DNA of 64,000 bases from Thermoplasmata archaeon. Lineage in GTDB: Archaea > Thermoplasmatota > Thermoplasmata > GCA-020350865. Below the pieces are notes generated by a model. That model saw only the letters and a list, made by a program, of their open reading frames with translations, had not been told where the DNA came from and ran no database searches. The first letter of the stretch is position 1. Every line of letters starts with the position of its first letter. Of the stretch, positions 25,055 to 33,886 are shown piece by piece. The translations under genes were made by a program, and so were the position numbers. The stretch lies in contig CP070751.1 of NCBI GenBank assembly GCA_020348445.1, forward strand, positions 4,876,506 through 4,940,505. Reading direction: 5' to 3'.

Positions 25055-25182
25055 GGTTATCAGGTTCGGTATGGTATTTGTATTATATCAAAATTACGCA
25101 GGTTTGAAAGGGTATGTACCAATCAAAGAATTAATAACAATGTAGAGCATTTCCGTATCAGAATTTCAGTGGGGATATTGAT

Positions 25183-26733
25183 ATGGATGCAATTATAAAC
25201 TCTGTGGGAAGGAAAATTCCAGAAGAAATAGATGGGAGAAAGCTTAAGCCATATCAAGGGGCCTTTTCTACAGCACCTGAACCCTGGAAGGCGCCTATGA
25301 AAGCAGGTTTTATAAAACCGGGAGAGAGTAAGATACTGGCATCTTTGGAGGAGTCCATAAAGAAAACTGGCCTTACAGATGGGATGACGGTATCCTTTCA
25401 CCACCATCTAAGAAATGGAGATGGTGTTATTAACATGGTGATGGACGCCATTGCCCAGATGGGGATAAAGAACATCAGAATATTCCCCACAGCTCTCTTT
25501 CCTGTTCATGAACATTTAATACCCCACATAGAAAGCGGAGTCATAACCTCAATCGAGGGCAGCATGAACGGCCCTGTTGGAGCTGCTGCGACATATGGCA
25601 TTCTTCCCAAGTGCGCAGTTCTGAGATCCCACGGCGGAAGGATAAGGGCTATACATTCTGGGGATGTGAAGGTTGATGTGGCCTTTTTGGCAGCTTCATC
25701 AGCTGATCCTTACGGGAATTGTAACGGTGTCTTTGGACCCAACTTCTTTGGACCAGTGGGATTGGCCAGGGCCGATGCCATGTTCGGTGAGCATGTGGTT
25801 ATTGTGACAGATAACCTAGTGGAATACCCCTGCTATCCAATCAGTATATCACAGAAATACGTGGATTATGTAGTTGAGGTTCCTTCTATCGGGGATCATG
25901 CGGGCATAGTATCTGGAACAACTGAGGTCACAAAGGATCCAAAACAGCTTGCAATGGCTGAGCAGATTGTAAAACTAATTGAGCAGTCTGGCCTTCTTAA
26001 GGAGGGTATGTCCTTTCAGGCAGGAGCTGGAGGGGTTTCCCTTGCTTCCATGAAAGTACTTCACGATTACATGAGGGAAAAAGGGATTCACGGTAACTTT
26101 GCAATTGGGGGCACAACCAAGTACCTGGTTGATATGCTAAGGGATGGTACTATTCGGGTTCTTTTAACTGGTCAATCTTTTGATCTAGAATCCATAGAAT
26201 CCATTGCCAAGGATTACGGCCACCAGGAGATTACAACCGATTTTTATGCCAACATCCACAATAAGGGCTGTGCAGTCAACTGGCTGGATGTCGTTATTCT
26301 CGGGGCCACAGAAGTTGATGTGGATTTTAACGTTAATGTGAACACACACTCTGATGGTAAGTTGCTACATGGAATAGGGGGTCATCAGGATACTGCTGCA
26401 GGAGCCAAACTGACAATTATCGTATGTCCGCTTTTCAGGAAGAAAATACCCATTGTCAGGGAGTCTGTGACCACTGTAACCACACCTGGTGAGACAGTGG
26501 ATGCAATTGTCACAAATGAGGGAATAGCAATAAATCCAAGAAGGCAGGACCTTGTGAAAAAATTACAGGAAAGTGACTTACCCATAAGAAAGATTGAGGA
26601 TCTGCAAAAACAGGCATATGAGATAACTGGCGGTCCTCCAGAATTGGTAACAACTGATAGGATCATCGCTTTAATCGAATACCGTGACGGATCAATAATA
26701 GACGTTGTCAGGGGATTGAAAAAGGATTCTTAG
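25183..26733 (+). CDS. citF: Citrate lyase alpha subunit family (citrate CoA-transferase)
   Basis: GMTVSFHHHLRNGD, LRSHGGR, FQAGAGG, GIGGHQDTAAGA, and C-terminal IEYRDGSIIDVV; 516 aa, typical CitF length. Confidence 0.92.
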   Translation: MDAIINSVGRKIPEEIDGRKLKPYQGAFSTAPEPWKAPMKAGFIKPGESKILASLEESIKKTGLTDGMTVSFHHHLRNGDGVINMVMDAIAQMGIKNIRIFPTALFPVHEHLIPHIESGVITSIEGSMNGPVGAAATYGILPKCAVLRSHGGRIRAIHSGDVKVDVAFLAASSADPYGNCNGVFGPNFFGPVGLARADAMFGEHVVIVTDNLVEYPCYPISISQKYVDYVVEVPSIGDHAGIVSGTTEVTKDPKQLAMAEQIVKLIEQSGLLKEGMSFQAGAGGVSLASMKVLHDYMREKGIHGNFAIGGTTKYLVDMLRDGTIRVLLTGQSFDLESIESIAKDYGHQEITTDFYANIHNKGCAVNWLDVVILGATEVDVDFNVNVNTHSDGKLLHGIGGHQDTAAGAKLTIIVCPLFRKKIPIVRESVTTVTTPGETVDAIVTNEGIAINPRRQDLVKKLQESDLPIRKIEDLQKQAYEITGGPPELVTTDRIIALIEYRDGSIIDVVRGLKKDS

Positions 26734-26745
26734 GAAGCTGGTATT

Positions 26746-27507
26746 ATGGATGCTGTAAAATGGAAAACAGGAATCACGAAGGTGGAGCCAAACAAGATAG
26801 TAACAAGAGGTTATCCTCAGGATGAACTCATTGGGAACGTCCCTTTTTCTCACGTTGTGTTTCTTCTCATGAAAGGGGAAATGCCCTCAGAGAGCGAGGG
26901 AAAAATGATGGATGCAATACTCACAGCCTGTGTAGATCACGGTGTGACACCTCCTTCCTCCCAGGCCTCGAGGGTGGTGGCCTCAGGGGGTGTTCCAATG
27001 CCAACTGCCATAGCCGCGGGGCTTATGTCAATAGGTGATTTTCACGGAGGGGCCATCGAAAAAGGTGCCTTGTTTTTACAGGATGGGGTAAAGCGTATGA
27101 AAGATGAGGGAAAAAGTGCTGAGAAGATGGCTTCTATATTGGTTAAGGAGTCAAAGGAAAAGGGCAAGAGGATTCTGGGCTTTGGACACAGGATTCATAC
27201 AGACGACCCAAGGACAAAGAAGCTGCTTTTACTGGCGGAGGAACTTGGAATCGCAAAGGAACATGTGGCACTTTCAAGGGCAATTGCAGTTGAGCTTGAA
27301 AAGACCCTAGGTAAGAAATTGCCCATAAATGTTGATGGTTGTGTGGCTGCATTGATTTCTGACATGGGATTTGACTGGAGGTTGGGTAAGGCTTTTTTTG
27401 TAATAGGGAGGACTGCAGGCTTGACCGCGCAGGTTTACGAGGAGATATCCAGGGAGAAGCCTATGAGGAGGATGTGGAGCGCGGATGTTGAGTACGATGG
27501 GCCATAG
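26746..27507 (+). CDS. ccl: Citryl-CoA lyase (small citrate-synthase-fold family)
   Basis: WKTGIT...RGY, DHG, HGGA, GFGHR and NVDG motifs with the citrate-synthase His/His/Asp residues; 253 aa, lacking the large CS N-terminus. Confidence 0.88.
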   Translation: MDAVKWKTGITKVEPNKIVTRGYPQDELIGNVPFSHVVFLLMKGEMPSESEGKMMDAILTACVDHGVTPPSSQASRVVASGGVPMPTAIAAGLMSIGDFHGGAIEKGALFLQDGVKRMKDEGKSAEKMASILVKESKEKGKRILGFGHRIHTDDPRTKKLLLLAEELGIAKEHVALSRAIAVELEKTLGKKLPINVDGCVAALISDMGFDWRLGKAFFVIGRTAGLTAQVYEEISREKPMRRMWSADVEYDGP

Positions 27508-27595
27508 GAAGGGAAGGTTTGAGTGAGATAGAAGTTTTTATTTGAATAGACAAGTGAAAAAGGATTTTTAAGCGTCCCCCTCACCCTTGACACAC

Positions 27596-27608
27596 AAACC
27601 CTTATATA
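27596..27608 (+). promoter_or_regulatory. BRE/TATA box of the thioredoxin-domain gene
   Basis: AAACCCTTATATA about 24 nt before ATG 27632, consistent with a leaderless transcript. Confidence 0.55.
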
Positions 27609-27631
27609 CAATCTTTCTTCATGCCAGCTCA

Positions 27632-29731
27632 ATGAAATCCCCTTCTAAATCCAATCGCTTGATCAATGAAAAGAGTCCTTATCTTTTGCAGCATGCCCAC
27701 AATCCAGTTGACTGGTACCCCTGGGGTGAGGTAGCTTTTGAGAAGGCAAAATCCCAGGACAGGCCTATATTCCTTTCCATTGGCTACTCCACTTGTCACT
27801 GGTGCCATGTCATGGAAAAGGAGTCCTTTGAAGATGAAAAGGTTGCGAGGCTTCTTAATGAAAACTTCGTGTGCATAAAAGTGGACAGGGAAGAGCGGCC
27901 AGATATAGACAACATCTACATGACAGTCTGTCAGATGTTGACAGGAAGCGGAGGATGGCCTCTTACAATTATAATGACTTCTGATAAAAAGCCCTTTTTT
28001 GCAGCAACATACATACCAAAAGAAAGTAGATTTGGAATGGCTGGTCTTTTGGATCTTATACCGAAAATATCACAAATTTGGGCAAACCAAAGAGGGGAAA
28101 TTCTAAATTCAGCAGAACAGGTTATAACAACCCTAAAATGGTACCCTCAGACATCCAAAGGTGAAGAGCTGGATGCATCTATTCTCGACTCCGCATATGG
28201 AGACCTTCTAAATTCATTTGATGAAAATTACGGGGGATTTGGGAGTGCACCCAAATTTCCCAGCCCCCATAATCTTATCTTTTTGCTTTGGTATTGGAAA
28301 AGGGCAGATCATCAAAAAGCCCTTCATATGGTTGAGGATACATTAAAGAAGATGAGACAAGGAGGAATCTGGGATCATGTGGGATTTGGATTCCATAGAT
28401 ATTCAACTGACAGATTCTGGCTCGTTCCCCATTTTGAAAAGATGCTTTACGATCAGGCAATGCTGGCTCTGGCCTACACCGAGGCATTTTACGCAACTGG
28501 TAAATCTGAATATAAAGAAACTGTAGAGGAATTATTGCAGTATGTTCTAAGGGACATGACCTCCTCTGAGGGGGGGTTTTACTCTGCTGAGGACGCGGAT
28601 AGTGAAGGGGAGGAGGGTAAGTTCTATTTGTGGACTGAAGAGGAAATTAGAGGGAACTTGGGTGATGAAACAGAGAATTTTAAAAAAGTATTCAATATAT
28701 CAAAAGATGGCAACTATATCGACGAAATCAAGGGTAAAAAAACGAAAAAAAATATTCTCCATCTTAAGAAATCCTACTCAGACCTAGCAAAGGATATGGA
28801 TGTTCCCCTCGAAGAACTCAAAATAAACATTGAAAAAGCTAGACAGATATTTTATGCAAACAGGGAAAAAAGAGTTCATCCTCACAAGGACGATAAAATA
28901 CTAACAGACTGGAATGGACTTATGATAGCAGCCTTTGCAAAGGCTGGATTTGTTTTTGGTAATGCTGATTACATTGGGGTGGCAAAGAATGCTGCTGATT
29001 TCATTTTAACAAATATGGATGATAAAGATAATGGTCTTTTACATAGGTTTAGAGAAGGAGAAGCCGCGATACCTGGATTTCTCGATGACTATGCATTCTT
29101 TGTTTGGGGTTTGATTGAACTTTATGAATCTACCTTTGAATTGAAATATCTGAGCCATGCAATTGAATATACAAAATACTCAATCGAGCATTTCTGGGAT
29201 GAGGAGGGTGGTGGTTTTTTTTTAACTTCTGATCACGCAGAAAATCTTCTCGTTCGCCATAAAACAGGTTATGATGGTGCCATCCCATCTGGGAACTCCA
29301 TAGCAATGCTGAATTTAATAAGGCTGGCAAGAATCAGCGGGAATTCTGGAATGGAAGAAAAAGCTCAAAATGTCAAACTCGCATTTTCCAGCGATATCAA
29401 TAATCATCCTCTATCTCATACCCAATTCCTGACGGCTTATGATTTTCTTGTAGGGCCCTCATTTGAGGTTGTTATTGTAGGAGATCTTGATTCAGAAGAT
29501 ACAAAAGATATAATGAATCTATTTCGTGAATATTATTTTCCAAATATGGTTCTTTTGCACAAACCCATTGATAGATCAACAAATATAGAATCCATCTCAC
29601 CTTTTACAAAAGATATGTCAACCATAAACGGAAAAACCACCGTATATGTTTGTCGTAACTTCAGTTGTGAGCTCCCAACAAACGATAAAGAAAAAATACT
29701 GAAGCTGCTTAATGTAAAGAATATTTTATGA
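27632..29731 (+). CDS. Thioredoxin domain-containing protein, YyaL/SPATA20 (DUF255) family
   Basis: [62 protein letters not shown]. Start set to ATG 27632. Confidence 0.95.
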
Positions 29732-30771: not shown

Positions 30772-31545
30772 ATGGTAAACCAGTACAAAAACATTCAATT
30801 TGAGAAGGATGAGCATGTAGCAAAGATAACTCTTAACAGACCGCCTCTTAATGTTCTCAATATCGAGATGATGAGGGAAATCAATTCTGTTTTAGAAGGA
30901 TTGGAGGACGATAAGAAATTGAAAGCCGTTATTTTTCAGGCTGAAGGTAAAGCCTTCTCAGCTGGCGTGGATGTTTCTGATCATACCAATGATAAGGTAG
31001 AGGAGATGATTCACGTCTTTCACATGATATTCTTTCATATGACAAAAATAAAGGCTCCCACCGTAGCACTGGTAAATGGTCCCGCGTTGGGTGGGGGGTG
31101 TGAACTTGCAGTATTCTGTGATATGGTCCTGGCTTCGGATAGCTCAAAATTCGGGCAGCCAGAGATCAAAGTGGGTGTGTTTCCACCCATCGCGGCTGTG
31201 ATGTTTCCCTGGTACACGAACTTAAAAAAGGCCATGGAACTGCTTATGACTGGTGAGACCATATCTGCTTCCGAGGCAAAGGAAATTGGTCTGGTCAATG
31301 CCGTATACCCCATGGAGACTTTCGAAGAGGATGCCAAGGGTTTTATAGAAAAGCTGACAAGCCAAAGTTCTGTTGTTCTCCAATTGACAAAAGAAGCCAT
31401 CGATGAGGCCTATGGTGAGAATTATCATATCGCCGTAGCAAAGGTGGAGAATGTCTATATGAACAAACTCATGAATACCCACGATGCTAACGAAGGCTTG
31501 AAAGCATTTTTGGAGAAGAGAAAGCCAGAATGGAAGAACGAATAA
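30772..31545 (+). CDS. Enoyl-CoA hydratase/isomerase (crotonase family, Dch-like)
   Basis: ITLNRPPLN, FSAGVDV, ALGGGCE and FGQPE (both catalytic Glu residues), GVFPPIAA. Confidence 0.9.
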   Translation: MVNQYKNIQFEKDEHVAKITLNRPPLNVLNIEMMREINSVLEGLEDDKKLKAVIFQAEGKAFSAGVDVSDHTNDKVEEMIHVFHMIFFHMTKIKAPTVALVNGPALGGGCELAVFCDMVLASDSSKFGQPEIKVGVFPPIAAVMFPWYTNLKKAMELLMTGETISASEAKEIGLVNAVYPMETFEEDAKGFIEKLTSQSSVVLQLTKEAIDEAYGENYHIAVAKVENVYMNKLMNTHDANEGLKAFLEKRKPEWKNE

Positions 31546-31559
31546 TAGGGGAGATTACA

Positions 31560-32303
31560 ATGGAGTTGGAAGGTCAAGTTGGAATAGTCACAGGTGGAAG
31601 CCTGGGTATAGGTTCTTCAATTGCTATTGCATTGGCAAAAAATGGTGCTGATGTTGCCTTAAATTACAGGAAACATGATGCTGAGGCAAAGGCCATAGCA
31701 GAGAAAATTAACGGCATGGGCAGACGTGGTATGGTGGTTAAAGCGGACGTTTCAAAAACAGAAGATGCGCAGAATATGGTCAAGAAAGTTGTAGAGGATT
31801 TTGGAAGACTGGATATACTCGTCTGCAATGCAGGAATTAACATGGACAGCGTGATTTGGAAGATGACAGAAGAGCAGTGGGACACAGTGATGTCAGTTAA
31901 TCTTAAGGGTTATTTTAACTACGCAAAGGCAGCGGCCCCCATATTCAAGGAGCAAAAGCATGGTAAGATAGTGAACATAACATCAATAAACGGTCTTAGA
32001 GGCAAGTTTGGGCAGTCCAATTACTCTGCAAGCAAAGGTGGAATAATTGCATTGACAAAAACCCTGGCCAAAGAGCTTGGAAGGTATAACGTGAACGCCA
32101 ATGCAGTGGCGCCTGGAATGATAGGTACTGAGATGATGTTAAAACTGCCTGAGGAATGGAAGCAAAAGGCAGTGGATGAAACAGTGCTTGGAAGAATAGG
32201 CACACCAGAGGATGTGGCAAACGTTGTTGTTTTCCTATGCAGTGAAAATGCCAGGCATATCACAGGTGAGGTAATCAAAGTTGACGGCGGGCAGTACATT
32301 TGA
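31560..32303 (+). CDS. Short-chain dehydrogenase, FabG/3-oxoacyl-CoA reductase-like
   Basis: TGGSLGIG, CNAG, YSASK, NAVAPG. Start set to ATG 31560, after the RBS GGGGAG. Confidence 0.92.
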   Translation: MELEGQVGIVTGGSLGIGSSIAIALAKNGADVALNYRKHDAEAKAIAEKINGMGRRGMVVKADVSKTEDAQNMVKKVVEDFGRLDILVCNAGINMDSVIWKMTEEQWDTVMSVNLKGYFNYAKAAAPIFKEQKHGKIVNITSINGLRGKFGQSNYSASKGGIIALTKTLAKELGRYNVNANAVAPGMIGTEMMLKLPEEWKQKAVDETVLGRIGTPEDVANVVVFLCSENARHITGEVIKVDGGQYI

Positions 32304-32314
32304 ATTGCTGAGGG

Positions 32315-33469
32315 ATGAATATGAAAATCGGAGTTGCGGGTATTGGTCACGGTGTCTTTGGAAAAAGAAATGATGCAACAGCCCAGGAGCTTGCCTTTGA
32401 GCCTTTTTCTGAGGCCATGGAGGACTGCGGAATCACGCAGCAGGATATCGATGCCACGATAATTGGTTCTTCTCCAGAATATCACAAGCAGCGCTCACTT
32501 CCAGGCGTGGTTACCGAATATATTGGCATGAATCCCAAGCCCGCTTTTTTAACTGAAGCTGCATGTGCCTCAGGATCGGCTGCCCTTCTCAGTGCCTATG
32601 GATTCATCAGGGCTGGAATGTTCGATGTCGTGGCAGTTATTGGTGTTCAGAAGATGATGGAGCTTTCCACCCCAGAGATTTTGGCTTTAATGGGTAGGGT
32701 AGGGGACGTGCAGTGGGAGTCCAACTTTGGTACCACATTTCCTGGTTACTATGCCCTGTATGCTCGAAGGCACATGCATGAGTTCGGTACAACAGAGGAG
32801 CAGATGGCCCAGGTGGCGATAAAGAACCATTTTTATGGTACAAAGAATCCAAAAGCTAGGTTTCAGAAAGAGGTGAGCATGGAGAAGATAATGTCCTCTA
32901 AAATCGTGGCTTCTCCCTTGAAGATGTTCGACTGCTGTGCAAATGCTGACGGTGCAGCATGTCTTATCATAGCAAATGAGGATAAGGCCAGGAAGATATC
33001 GGATACACCGATCTGGCTTGAGGGTGTGGGTAGTGCAACTGCTCCCTTCTCAGTTTTAAATAGAGCCTCTATCTCCACAATACCAAGTGCAGTTGAGGCA
33101 GGAAAGCAGGCCTTTAAAATGGCAGATTGTGAACCAAAAAACATCCATGTTGCCGATGTTCATGACTGTTTCACAATTGCCGAGCTTATGGCCTATGAAG
33201 ATCTGGGATTCTGCAAAAGAGGCGAGGGAGGTAAGTTCATAGAGGAGAAGCAGTCCTACATTGGAGGAAAGATCCCTGTAAATGTGGATGGAGGTCTTAA
33301 ATCCAAGGGACATCCTGTGGGTGCAACTGGCACTTCAATGGCCTATGAGGCTGTAAAACAATTGCGGGGTGAGGCAGGGGAAAGACAGGTTGATGGTGCC
33401 GAGATAGCCCTGACCCACAATGTCGGAGGTATAGGACAGTACTGCTTTGTAAATATCTACAAGAGGTGA
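32315..33469 (+). CDS. Archaeal-type thiolase (acetyl-CoA acyltransferase)
   Basis: EAACASG catalytic Cys, HDCF, KSKGHPVGATG, HNVGG. Confidence 0.93.
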   Translation: MNMKIGVAGIGHGVFGKRNDATAQELAFEPFSEAMEDCGITQQDIDATIIGSSPEYHKQRSLPGVVTEYIGMNPKPAFLTEAACASGSAALLSAYGFIRAGMFDVVAVIGVQKMMELSTPEILALMGRVGDVQWESNFGTTFPGYYALYARRHMHEFGTTEEQMAQVAIKNHFYGTKNPKARFQKEVSMEKIMSSKIVASPLKMFDCCANADGAACLIIANEDKARKISDTPIWLEGVGSATAPFSVLNRASISTIPSAVEAGKQAFKMADCEPKNIHVADVHDCFTIAELMAYEDLGFCKRGEGGKFIEEKQSYIGGKIPVNVDGGLKSKGHPVGATGTSMAYEAVKQLRGEAGERQVDGAEIALTHNVGGIGQYCFVNIYKR

Positions 33470-33475
33470 TGAGAA

Positions 33476-33886
33476 ATGGGATTTGAGAGGTTCGGAAAGG
33501 TTTCCTTTGCTCCATTTACAAAGGTCTCGAAGTTCGTGGATTTTTTGGATGAAGGGAAGATCAAAGGAACAGTTTGCAAGAAATGTAGCACTTTCCATTT
33601 TCCTCCCCGGGGAGATTGTGTTTCCTGTCCTTCCTCAGAAATAGACTGGAAGGAGATCTCAGGGAATTGCAAGCTCGTCACCTATACAACTATTCATTCG
33701 GCTCCACAGGGTTTCGAGGACGACAAACCTTATACCCTGGCAATGGTTGATCTGGAGGAAGGGGGCAGAGCTTTAGGCTGGACAGAAGGTCTTTCTGAGG
33801 AGGATTTGAAAATCGGGATGGCCTTGAAATTGGAGATAAAAAAGCTACCTGATGAGAGGTTGACCTTTGTTTTGAAGGGCCAGTGA
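33476..33886 (+). CDS. DUF35 zinc-ribbon/OB-fold thiolase partner
   Basis: CKKC...FPPRGDCVSC, LVTYTTIH, PYTLAMVDLEEG; adjacent to the thiolase. Confidence 0.92.
   Translation: MGFERFGKVSFAPFTKVSKFVDFLDEGKIKGTVCKKCSTFHFPPRGDCVSCPSSEIDWKEISGNCKLVTYTTIHSAPQGFEDDKPYTLAMVDLEEGGRALGWTEGLSEEDLKIGMALKLEIKKLPDERLTFVLKGQ

Follow-up and report, generated by a model that had tools for sequence, protein, structure and literature searches.

The step at which citrate is cleaved or formed defines tricarboxylic acid (TCA) cycle variants and those of the reverse TCA cycle. Known solutions are citrate synthase, run forward or reversed, ATP-citrate lyase (ACL), the couple that citryl-coenzyme A (CoA) synthetase forms with citryl-CoA lyase (CCS/CCL), and the CitDEF citrate lyase, which depends on an acyl carrier protein (ACP). 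CitF normally acts within the CitDEF complex on the acyl-carrier subunit, and Ccl normally follows citryl-CoA synthetase, an ATP-dependent enzyme, as in Aquificae. What, then, do the two enzymes do when their genes stand side by side? The question is raised by a 64,000-nucleotide stretch of DNA from an uncultured Thermoplasmata archaeon of sediment (contig CP070751.1 of assembly GCA_020348445.1; hereafter, the window), in which a citF gene, citF1, is directly followed by ccl. Judging from the gene content of the host and its relatives, we think it somewhat probable that CitF1 and Ccl constitute a two-enzyme citrate lyase that would require neither ATP nor a carrier protein and would operate through free citryl-CoA.

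In the proposed reaction sequence, CitF would move CoA from acetyl-CoA to citrate, yielding (3S)-citryl-CoA and acetate (EC 2.8.3.10), and Ccl would split citryl-CoA into oxaloacetate and acetyl-CoA (EC 4.1.3.34). Acetyl-CoA would serve as a catalytic carrier only, the net reaction being the interconversion of citrate with acetate and oxaloacetate. Ccl would take the place of CitE, and free CoA would take the place of the CitD arm.

Identity of the paired genes

The citF1 gene (25183..26733, + strand, ATG start) encodes a 516-amino-acid homolog of the citrate lyase alpha-subunit. A spacer of 12 nt (GAAGCTGGTATT; 26734..26745, + strand) separates it from ccl (26746..27507, + strand, ATG start), whose 253-amino-acid product is a short protein of the citrate synthase fold that lacks the N-terminal part of citrate synthase. 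An earlier reading of the sequence, referred to here as the original prediction, had proposed a CitF CoA-transferase and a citryl-CoA lyase encoded 12 bp apart. Coordinates, strand, and spacer were confirmed, and both gene identities are borne out by profile matches above the respective cutoffs and by solved relatives. CitF1 scored 598.9 bits against the equivalog model TIGR01584 (cutoff, 501.45; residues 47-513 on model positions 23-491) and 538 bits against PF04223. It was matched over its full length by PDB entries 2HJ0 (E 1e-140) and 1XR4 (E 1e-131) and is 44% identical to CitF of Escherichia coli. We read CitF1 as an acetyl-CoA:citrate CoA-transferase that would use free CoA esters; for EC 2.8.3.10, free acetyl-CoA and citryl-CoA are listed in addition to the ACP-bound forms (PMC8085960).

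Ccl scored 292.4 bits against NF004866 (citryl-CoA lyase, PRK06224; cutoff, 245) and 278.5 bits against NF004869, a citryl-CoA lyase subfamily (cutoff, 212). Its match to PF00285 covers the C-terminal part of the model alone (positions 162-355 of 357), and all citrate synthase equivalogs fell far under their cutoffs. The length of 253 residues lies within the range of Hydrogenobacter-type CCL (~250-270 amino acids) and outside that of citrate synthase (~370-430 amino acids). Among solved structures, the best relative of Ccl is 6HXP, "Citryl-CoA lyase," from Hydrogenobacter (E 2e-66; residues 6-252 versus 5-246). By alignment, H65, H100, H148, R156, D197, F218, and R222 of Ccl correspond to H229, H264, H305, R314, D362, F383, and R387 of E. 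coli citrate synthase. Ccl accordingly retains seven of the eight citrate synthase active-site residues listed in a recent survey (PMC13147460), and the eighth, R407, falls outside the local alignment. Across 12 Ccl homologs, the seven mapped residues are invariant except for F218, which is nearly so. Each of two complex-prediction runs with CitF1 and Ccl scored 0.00 and gave no answer on binding.

Canonical partners in the host genome and its relatives

The host genome is a metagenome-assembled genome (MAG) held as one record of ~353 contigs joined by 100-N spacers (5.16 Mb, 81.7% complete, 3.8% contaminated). For CitC, CitD, CitE, CitF, CitG, and CitX, we built hidden Markov models (HMMs) from Clostridium-type citCDEFXG loci, with the identity of the members verified by Pfam. 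Upon searching the six-frame translation of the host genome, the models for CitC, CitD, CitE, CitG, and CitX gave no significant match, the best E-values for citC, citX, and citG being 0.03-0.07; as an internal control, both CitF copies of this genome scored 772-803 bits. PF06857, the CitD family, likewise had no match in the host assembly, and the sole match to PF03328, consulted for CitE, was pyruvate kinase. In the search for the synthetase CcsAB, the only full ATP-grasp_2 match in the host genome was a canonical SucC, which exceeds the succinate-CoA ligase cutoff, adjoins SucD, and lies outside the window; the other ATP-grasp_2 match was an ADP-forming acyl-CoA synthetase. Neither a citrate synthase nor an ACL-alpha-like gene was found in the host genome, where Ccl is the sole citrate-synthase-family gene. 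A search of the host genome with Citrate_bind (PF16114) gave no match, and the controls were equally silent. The lack of citD, citE, citC, citG, citX, and ccsAB that the original prediction had described for the window holds and extends to the whole of this 81.7%-complete assembly.

To this we added 14 other citF-ccl genomes, 10 archaeal and four from Calditrichota, of which six are 91-94% complete and one is a 3.2-Mb single-contig genome of the same genus. CitD and CitE (TIGR01588 for CitE) were found in none of the 14, and both archaeal CitDEF control genomes were matched. PF06857 was also silent in genomes G001 through G004. These results bear on the prospect that the pair belongs to an ordinary CitDEF, with citD and citE (and citC, citG, and citX) missed in an incomplete MAG or with a non-homologous carrier replacing CitD. 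The host's completeness and its ~353 contigs leave room for missed genes. However, the same negative outcome in 14 further genomes, the single-contig congener included, with both controls matched, makes this explanation very improbable, as does the count of CitD and CitE in the metagenome loci given below. The claim of an ACP-free, synthetase-free route through CitF and Ccl is supported by these absences together with the conservation of the pair.

Conservation of the citF-ccl pair

The citF-ccl pair is recurrent and is kept in several families of sediment Thermoplasmatota-type archaea and in Calditrichota. The two genes adjoin in all five genomes of the genus, with CitF identities of 81-93%, and the survey of synteny recovered the pair in other families and in metagenomes as well. 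Gene order varies among these relatives: it is citF-ccl-citF in G024 and G035, and in G053, ccl is followed by a 175-amino-acid open reading frame (ORF) and then citF. In G012, G044, and G020, citF is followed by a longer Ccl-like gene (353-392 amino acids) that is 38-42% identical to the window Ccl and under the family cutoff. The order in G044 is an AMP-forming acyl-CoA synthetase gene, citF, and the Ccl-like gene. One co-directional cluster of G012 (L129:5793-15983) encodes an aclB-like protein (428 amino acids), an aclA-like protein (712 amino acids), CitF (520 amino acids), and the Ccl-like protein (353 amino acids) and continues with an acetyl-CoA hydrolase/transferase-GNAT fusion (629 amino acids) and an ADP-forming acetyl-CoA synthetase (ACS; 708 amino acids). 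An ATP-dependent and a putative ATP-free citrate-cleaving system adjoin in this cluster.

Viewed from CitF, the neighborhoods divide by the lyase. Of 80 CitF loci taken from genomes that represent species, the majority carry citD-citE directly upstream, or else a citE long enough for a citE-citD fusion; loci of this type include those of DHVE2, Theionarchaea, and some Thermoplasmata. Four Calditrichota loci hold a divergent cluster, with CitF on one strand and TrmB, Ccl, an HD protein, IsoDH, and PrpD on the other.

Viewed from Ccl, a metagenome scan with the Ccl alignment retrieved 80 loci at 51-89% identity. CitF is present in 55 of these, almost always immediately upstream and on the same strand, with the two reading frames ~4 nt apart or overlapping, and neither CitD nor CitE occurs in any of the 80. 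A small HD-domain protein is encoded in 48 of the 80 loci. The dominant operon in this data set runs from the HD protein through CitF and Ccl to a fused aconitase-family protein of the LeuC+LeuD type (32 complete cases, with truncated ones in addition; e.g., L186:3980-8543).

At the level of the class, we analyzed a sample of 61 genomes, unselected and chosen by relatedness, 23 of which carry CitF. Twelve of the 23 have Ccl without CitD, seven have CitD without Ccl, none has both, and four (57-82% complete) have neither; as these genomes are related, the counts are not independent. The Ccl type occurs in six families of the class in the GTDB taxonomy, and the CitF tree requires at least four separate switches. 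CitF and Ccl without CitD are also found in one Acidobacteriota MAG and one Delongbacteria MAG. Normal-length citrate synthase is lacking from 14 of the 17 Ccl-bearing genomes of the class sample.

A CitF residue that tracks CitD

By contrasting CitFs encoded beside CitE with those encoded beside Ccl, we identified alignment column 421 (window CitF numbering), and loci were scored for CitD by HMM. The CitD-linked motif reads P-L-x-R-G-R-I-P, with Arg at position 421 in E. coli CitF, and window CitF1 has Lys421 (PLFRKKIP). Each of the 52 CitFs whose locus includes CitD has Arg421, leaving none with CitD and another residue. A non-Arg residue without CitD in the locus is found in 20 CitFs plus the two copies of the host genome (22 in the tree set). 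Seven CitFs have Arg421 without CitD in the locus; in five of these the locus is truncated at the end of a contig, and in the other two the genome encodes CitD at another site. All five phylogenetically independent contrasts agree on Arg421 (sign test, p = 0.06, the minimum for five pairs). Because the column had been chosen post hoc, it was tried on 45 CitFs outside the selection set, taken from Ccl-linked metagenome loci, and Arg421 was found in none of them. Columns 368 and 445 also differ between CitE and Ccl contexts, less cleanly than 421. The Arg421 criterion is an empirical result of the present analysis, not a published criterion; it would provide a simple sequence rule for separating carrier-dependent from carrier-independent CitFs.

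The CitDs of DHVE2/Thermoplasmata (L018:8904-9149, L019:8883-9149) carry AGTLEKGD or AGTVEKGD in place of the AGTLESGD of E. coli CitD, with Lys at the position of the prosthetic-group Ser. Their CitFs retain Arg421, so the residue tracks the CitD protein and not necessarily its prosthetic arm.

Three CitE-context loci are exceptions (L081 and L088 from Syntrophomonadaceae MAGs and L058 from a Eubacteriales Family XIII MAG). CitE and CitF adjoin in each, CitF has a non-Arg residue at position 421, and CitD is found neither in the locus nor in the genome. From these sequences, the arrangement looks like a second, CitE-based form of carrier-free citrate lyase. It resembles the window system in lacking CitD and Arg421 and differs in that the lyase is CitE, not Ccl.

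A second CitF and a split operon

The host genome encodes a second CitF, CitF2, which is 58% identical to CitF1 and lies on a 7.4-kb contig outside the window (CitF2 cluster, G000 1473802-1479706; L008:1483-3288, L009:1426-3767, L015:1354-3112). The gene order on this contig is a fused aconitase-family protein (601 amino acids), a LeuC/HacA-like protein (422 amino acids), a LeuD-like protein (161 amino acids), an HD-domain protein (185 amino acids), CitF2, and the start of an Iso_dh-family gene. Its aconitase-family genes are the only ones in the host genome. Two CitF copies are also present in G001, G002, and G003 and are a trait of the genus; in G001, CitF2 is followed by a complete Iso_dh-family gene (373 amino acids). 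The dehydratases and dehydrogenases of this cluster type are of the LeuCD/HacAB and LeuB/homoisocitrate types and fall under every specific cutoff. In the fused aconitase-like protein, the specificity loop has the sequence Y-L-T-I and matches neither of the two types, YLRT and YLVM, that we take to distinguish LeuD/HacB proteins.

In this genus, the citF1-ccl pair is best regarded as half of a tricarboxylate-branch gene set that is split in two. The adjacency in the original prediction of a two-gene unit stands, and the notion of a stand-alone unit does not: the pair corresponds to a split half of the widespread operon that encodes the HD protein, CitF, Ccl, and the fused aconitase. As a whole, the split gene set would link oxaloacetate and acetate or acetyl-CoA with isocitrate and 2-oxoglutarate.

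The HD-domain protein is a recurrent CitF neighbor (173-193 amino acids; PF01966, 25-45 bits; e.g., L186:3980-4501, L023:12542-13096, L049:7559-8098, L009:3210-3767). It appears in CitDEF-type clusters of Synergistales, Bipolaricaulota, and Theionarchaea and in Ccl-type clusters alike.

Weighing the proposed citrate lyase

Several points weigh against a citrate lyase composed of CitF1 and Ccl. The evidence consists of genes and comparative genomics, the enzymatic activity of the pair being a prediction, and the CoA donor and the tricarboxylate are assigned from homology only. The incompleteness of the host MAG means that absences from it are not proof, yet they are repeated in 14 further genomes. 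Position 421 was picked post hoc from ~520 alignment columns. The remaining three points, namely Ccl without CitF in one family, oxaloacetate-site residues shared with 2-methylcitrate synthases, and two CitF paralogs per genome that a simple citrate lyase does not explain, each touch on another explanation of the locus.

Genomes of family f15 have Ccl without any CitF, which means that CitF is not the sole possible supplier of citryl-CoA to Ccl. In three such genomes (G029, G018, and G039; L130:9713-12167, L131, and L138), Ccl is present with neither CitF nor CitD. A transporter of the CitMHS/Na-sulfate-symporter type (541 amino acids) is encoded directly upstream of Ccl in L130, and in L131 and L138, unannotated ORFs comparable in size and location (559 and 528 amino acids) lie upstream of Ccl. 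In G001, a distant Ccl-like gene (301 amino acids) lies directly downstream of a family III CoA-transferase (393 amino acids; PF02515, 342 bits; L134:9577-11753), forming a second pair of CoA-transferase and citrate-synthase-fold lyase with a different transferase family. Such loci could mean that CitF1 and Ccl are neighbors without a common pathway, with Ccl as a minimal citrate synthase or fed by another source of citryl-CoA and CitF serving another acid; in the many Ccl genomes without a normal-length citrate synthase, Ccl could substitute alone. However, the two genes stay 4-12 nt apart in lineages with CitF identities of 45-90%, no CitF genome of the class sample has both Ccl and CitD, and the loss of Arg421 in CitF accompanies the loss of CitD. 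We regard the lack of a common pathway as improbable.

The second point concerns the substrate. The pair could act on a citrate analog, such as 2-methylcitrate, homocitrate, or citramalate, in a route of the methylcitrate or 2-oxoacid-elongation type or in the cleavage of citramalate. 2-Methylcitrate synthases retain the same oxaloacetate-site residues, PrpD occurs in the Calditrichota and Theionarchaea clusters, and the LeuCD/HacAB- and LeuB/homoisocitrate-type companions described above would suit such a route. Set against this, Ccl exceeds the citryl-CoA lyase cutoffs and matches 6HXP over its full length, and CitF exceeds the citF equivalog cutoff. Ccl also retains every mapped residue that binds oxaloacetate or citrate, a point against citramalyl-CoA, which derives from pyruvate. 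Methylisocitrate lyase was in no cluster examined, no genome search having been aimed at it. The original prediction had raised citramalate or a related acid from glutamate fermentation as a substrate, and the search for methylaspartate-pathway genes leaves that suggestion weak: the E subunit of glutamate mutase was not found. MAAL_C (PF07476) gave two weak partial matches of 28.7 and 24 bits, which we read as non-specific because the model also matches 11 of 14 control genomes. Taken together, a citrate analog is an unlikely substrate, though not quite as improbable as a pair without a common pathway.

The third point concerns the CoA donor. With the same architecture, CitF could transfer CoA to citrate from succinyl-CoA or another acyl-CoA, and Ccl would then yield net acetyl-CoA. 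The outcome would be ACL-like, paid for by the succinyl-CoA thioester; in reverse, a citrate-forming step would conserve the thioester as succinyl-CoA. The canonical SucCD is present, CitF is weakly similar to succinyl-CoA:acetate CoA-transferases, and two CitF paralogs, or the citF-ccl-citF order of G024 and G035, could mean two donor specificities. An entry for the related citramalate CoA-transferase lists the succinate/succinyl-CoA pair, but EC 2.8.3.10 is documented with acetyl donors only (PMC8085960). In addition, the enzymes encoded beside the pair in G012 and G044 activate acetate rather than being linked to succinate, and no fumarate reductase was found that could feed a succinate pool. 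A succinyl donor is unlikely on balance, if marginally the least so of the alternatives considered here.

Direction of flux and host physiology

Returning to the acetyl-CoA-primed reaction of citrate with CitF and Ccl, the sequences show the gene identities, the conserved residues and synteny, and the absence of the canonical partners. Its substrates and its reliance on free CoA esters inside the cell are predictions, and either direction of flux is compatible with the sequence. Hydrogenobacter CCL is described as cleaving free citryl-CoA (Aoshima et al. 2004, cited by PMC13147460 and PMC1403158). The Gibbs energy given for CCL is -2.1 +/- 3.9 kJ/mol at 1 mM (PMC13147460), and with thioester exchange near zero, the CitF-Ccl pair should be freely reversible. 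Our estimate leans slightly toward cleavage, with synthesis not far behind.

In the direction of cleavage, citrate or carbon derived from 2-oxoglutarate would be converted to oxaloacetate and acetate. This is favored by the HD, aconitase, and IsoDH neighbors, which accompany canonical CitDEF in Synergistales, Bipolaricaulota, and Theionarchaea, by the citrate-transporter gene beside Ccl in f15, and by the ACL neighbor in G012. In the direction of synthesis, Ccl would condense acetyl-CoA with oxaloacetate to citryl-CoA, and CitF would return the CoA to acetate, so that organisms lacking citrate synthase would have citrate from which to make 2-oxoglutarate and glutamate. The resemblance of the operon to a biosynthetic cluster of citrate synthase, aconitase, and isocitrate dehydrogenase favors this option. 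Using -2.1 kJ/mol at 1 mM for CCL (PMC13147460) and assuming a CoA transfer near 0 kJ/mol, 10 mM acetate and 10 µM oxaloacetate would give an equilibrium citrate concentration of ~40 µM. By this rough estimate, that would be enough for pull by aconitase and a decarboxylating dehydrogenase. That no other route in the organism joins oxaloacetate to citrate, and that the pair runs at least partly in the synthetic direction, is a tentative proposal that we consider possible but doubtful.

As to the wider metabolism of these archaea, the host genome has pyruvate carboxylase, SucCD, and an ADP-forming ACS. SdhA/FrdA was not found in seven of eight citF-ccl archaeal genomes, the host being among those without fumarate reductase, so it is unlikely that these archaea run a complete TCA cycle in either direction. 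On this ground, autotrophy by a full reverse TCA cycle was rejected as the principal explanation of the locus. McrA was absent from all eight genomes, which rules out a methanogen metabolism despite the label "Methanomassiliicoccales archaeon" that a close relative carries at NCBI.

Relation to known citrate-cleaving systems

With CitDEF and its accessory proteins CitC, CitX, and CitG (EC 4.1.3.6; citCDEFXG of E. coli, Klebsiella), the window system shares the transferase subunit, the two proposed half-reactions (transfer to citrate and C-C cleavage of a citryl thioester), and the net reaction. It differs in lacking CitD, CitE (HpcH/TIM-barrel), and CitC, CitX, and CitG, in having a lyase of the citrate synthase fold, and in a CitF without Arg421. 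With CcsAB and Ccl of the reverse TCA cycle (Hydrogenobacter thermophilus, Leptospirillum), it has in common the lyase family, with the catalytic His/His/Asp kept, and the free citryl-CoA intermediate. There, however, an ATP-dependent, SucCD-like synthetase forms the thioester, whereas CoA transfer without ATP is proposed here, and the lack of fumarate reductase in the host speaks against a full reverse TCA cycle. ATP-citrate lyase (AclAB) is related through the C-terminal CCL domain of ACL alpha, which is homologous to Ccl (PDB matches 6QCL and 6HXJ); it differs in that the window pair has no ATP-grasp/CoA-ligase part and the genome has no other ACL-alpha gene.

Full-text searches of the searchable literature library found no paper pairing CitF with CCL, and for citrate cleavage, a 2026 survey names ACL, CCS/CCL, and reversed citrate synthase and no other system (PMC13147460). 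The CitF-Ccl pair is predicted to be a system assembled from known enzyme families, and comparative genomics supports it well. New in the present analysis are the split layout with two CitFs, the tabulated exclusion of Ccl and CitD, the bacteria with CitE and CitF and without CitD, and the rule for position 421.

Flanking features of the window and assembly structure

Upstream of citF1 lies a divergent intergenic region (25055..25182, not assigned to either strand) that, from a reading of the sequence, is a putative promoter and ribosome-binding site for citF1. It contains A/T-rich TATA-like boxes, TATTATAT near 25082 and AATTAATAA near 25130, and GGGGAT stands 7 nt 5' of the citF1 ATG. citF1 and ccl are probably co-transcribed. 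Two oligo-T runs (TTTTT) after ccl (27533..27572, + strand) may be an archaeal terminator, which would make citF1-ccl a two-gene transcript. The sequencing runs containing this DNA are of sediment DNA only, one of them probably the source sample, and no RNA run is among them.

Beyond ccl, the window encodes a 714-amino-acid protein with DUF255/thioredoxin domains (27587-29731). The same order is found in G001 and not in G002, so the gene is probably unrelated to the citrate module. Four co-directional genes at 30772-33886 encode an enoyl-CoA hydratase (257 amino acids), an SDR/3-oxoacyl reductase (257 amino acids), a thiolase-domain protein (384 amino acids), and a DUF35/ChsH2-type protein (136 amino acids) of the OB-fold zinc-ribbon kind. 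This cluster looks like a beta-oxidation-like set without 3-hydroxy-3-methylglutaryl-CoA synthase.

The host assembly (G000) is 5.16 Mb in size, compared with 2.3-3.7 Mb for its relatives in the genus. Its first 2.0 Mb consist of contigs sorted by falling size, from 190 kb to 1.1 kb, and the remaining 3.2 Mb consist of larger pieces in no size order, which looks like two contig sets joined end to end.

Implications

If the proposed reading is true, the CitF-Ccl pair would be a further solution to the interconversion of citrate with oxaloacetate, built from halves of two systems and operating without ATP, a carrier protein, or three maturation genes. Current annotation pipelines would break up the pair, labeling one part "citrate lyase, incomplete" and the other "reverse TCA marker CCL." Such a split would mislead metabolic reconstructions, as well as carbon-fixation surveys that count CCL as a marker of the reverse TCA cycle. 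Should the synthetic direction prove true, citrate would be made from acetate and oxaloacetate without the cost of a thioester; for sediment archaea that are starved of energy and lack citrate synthase, the pair would then replace that enzyme at a saving of energy.

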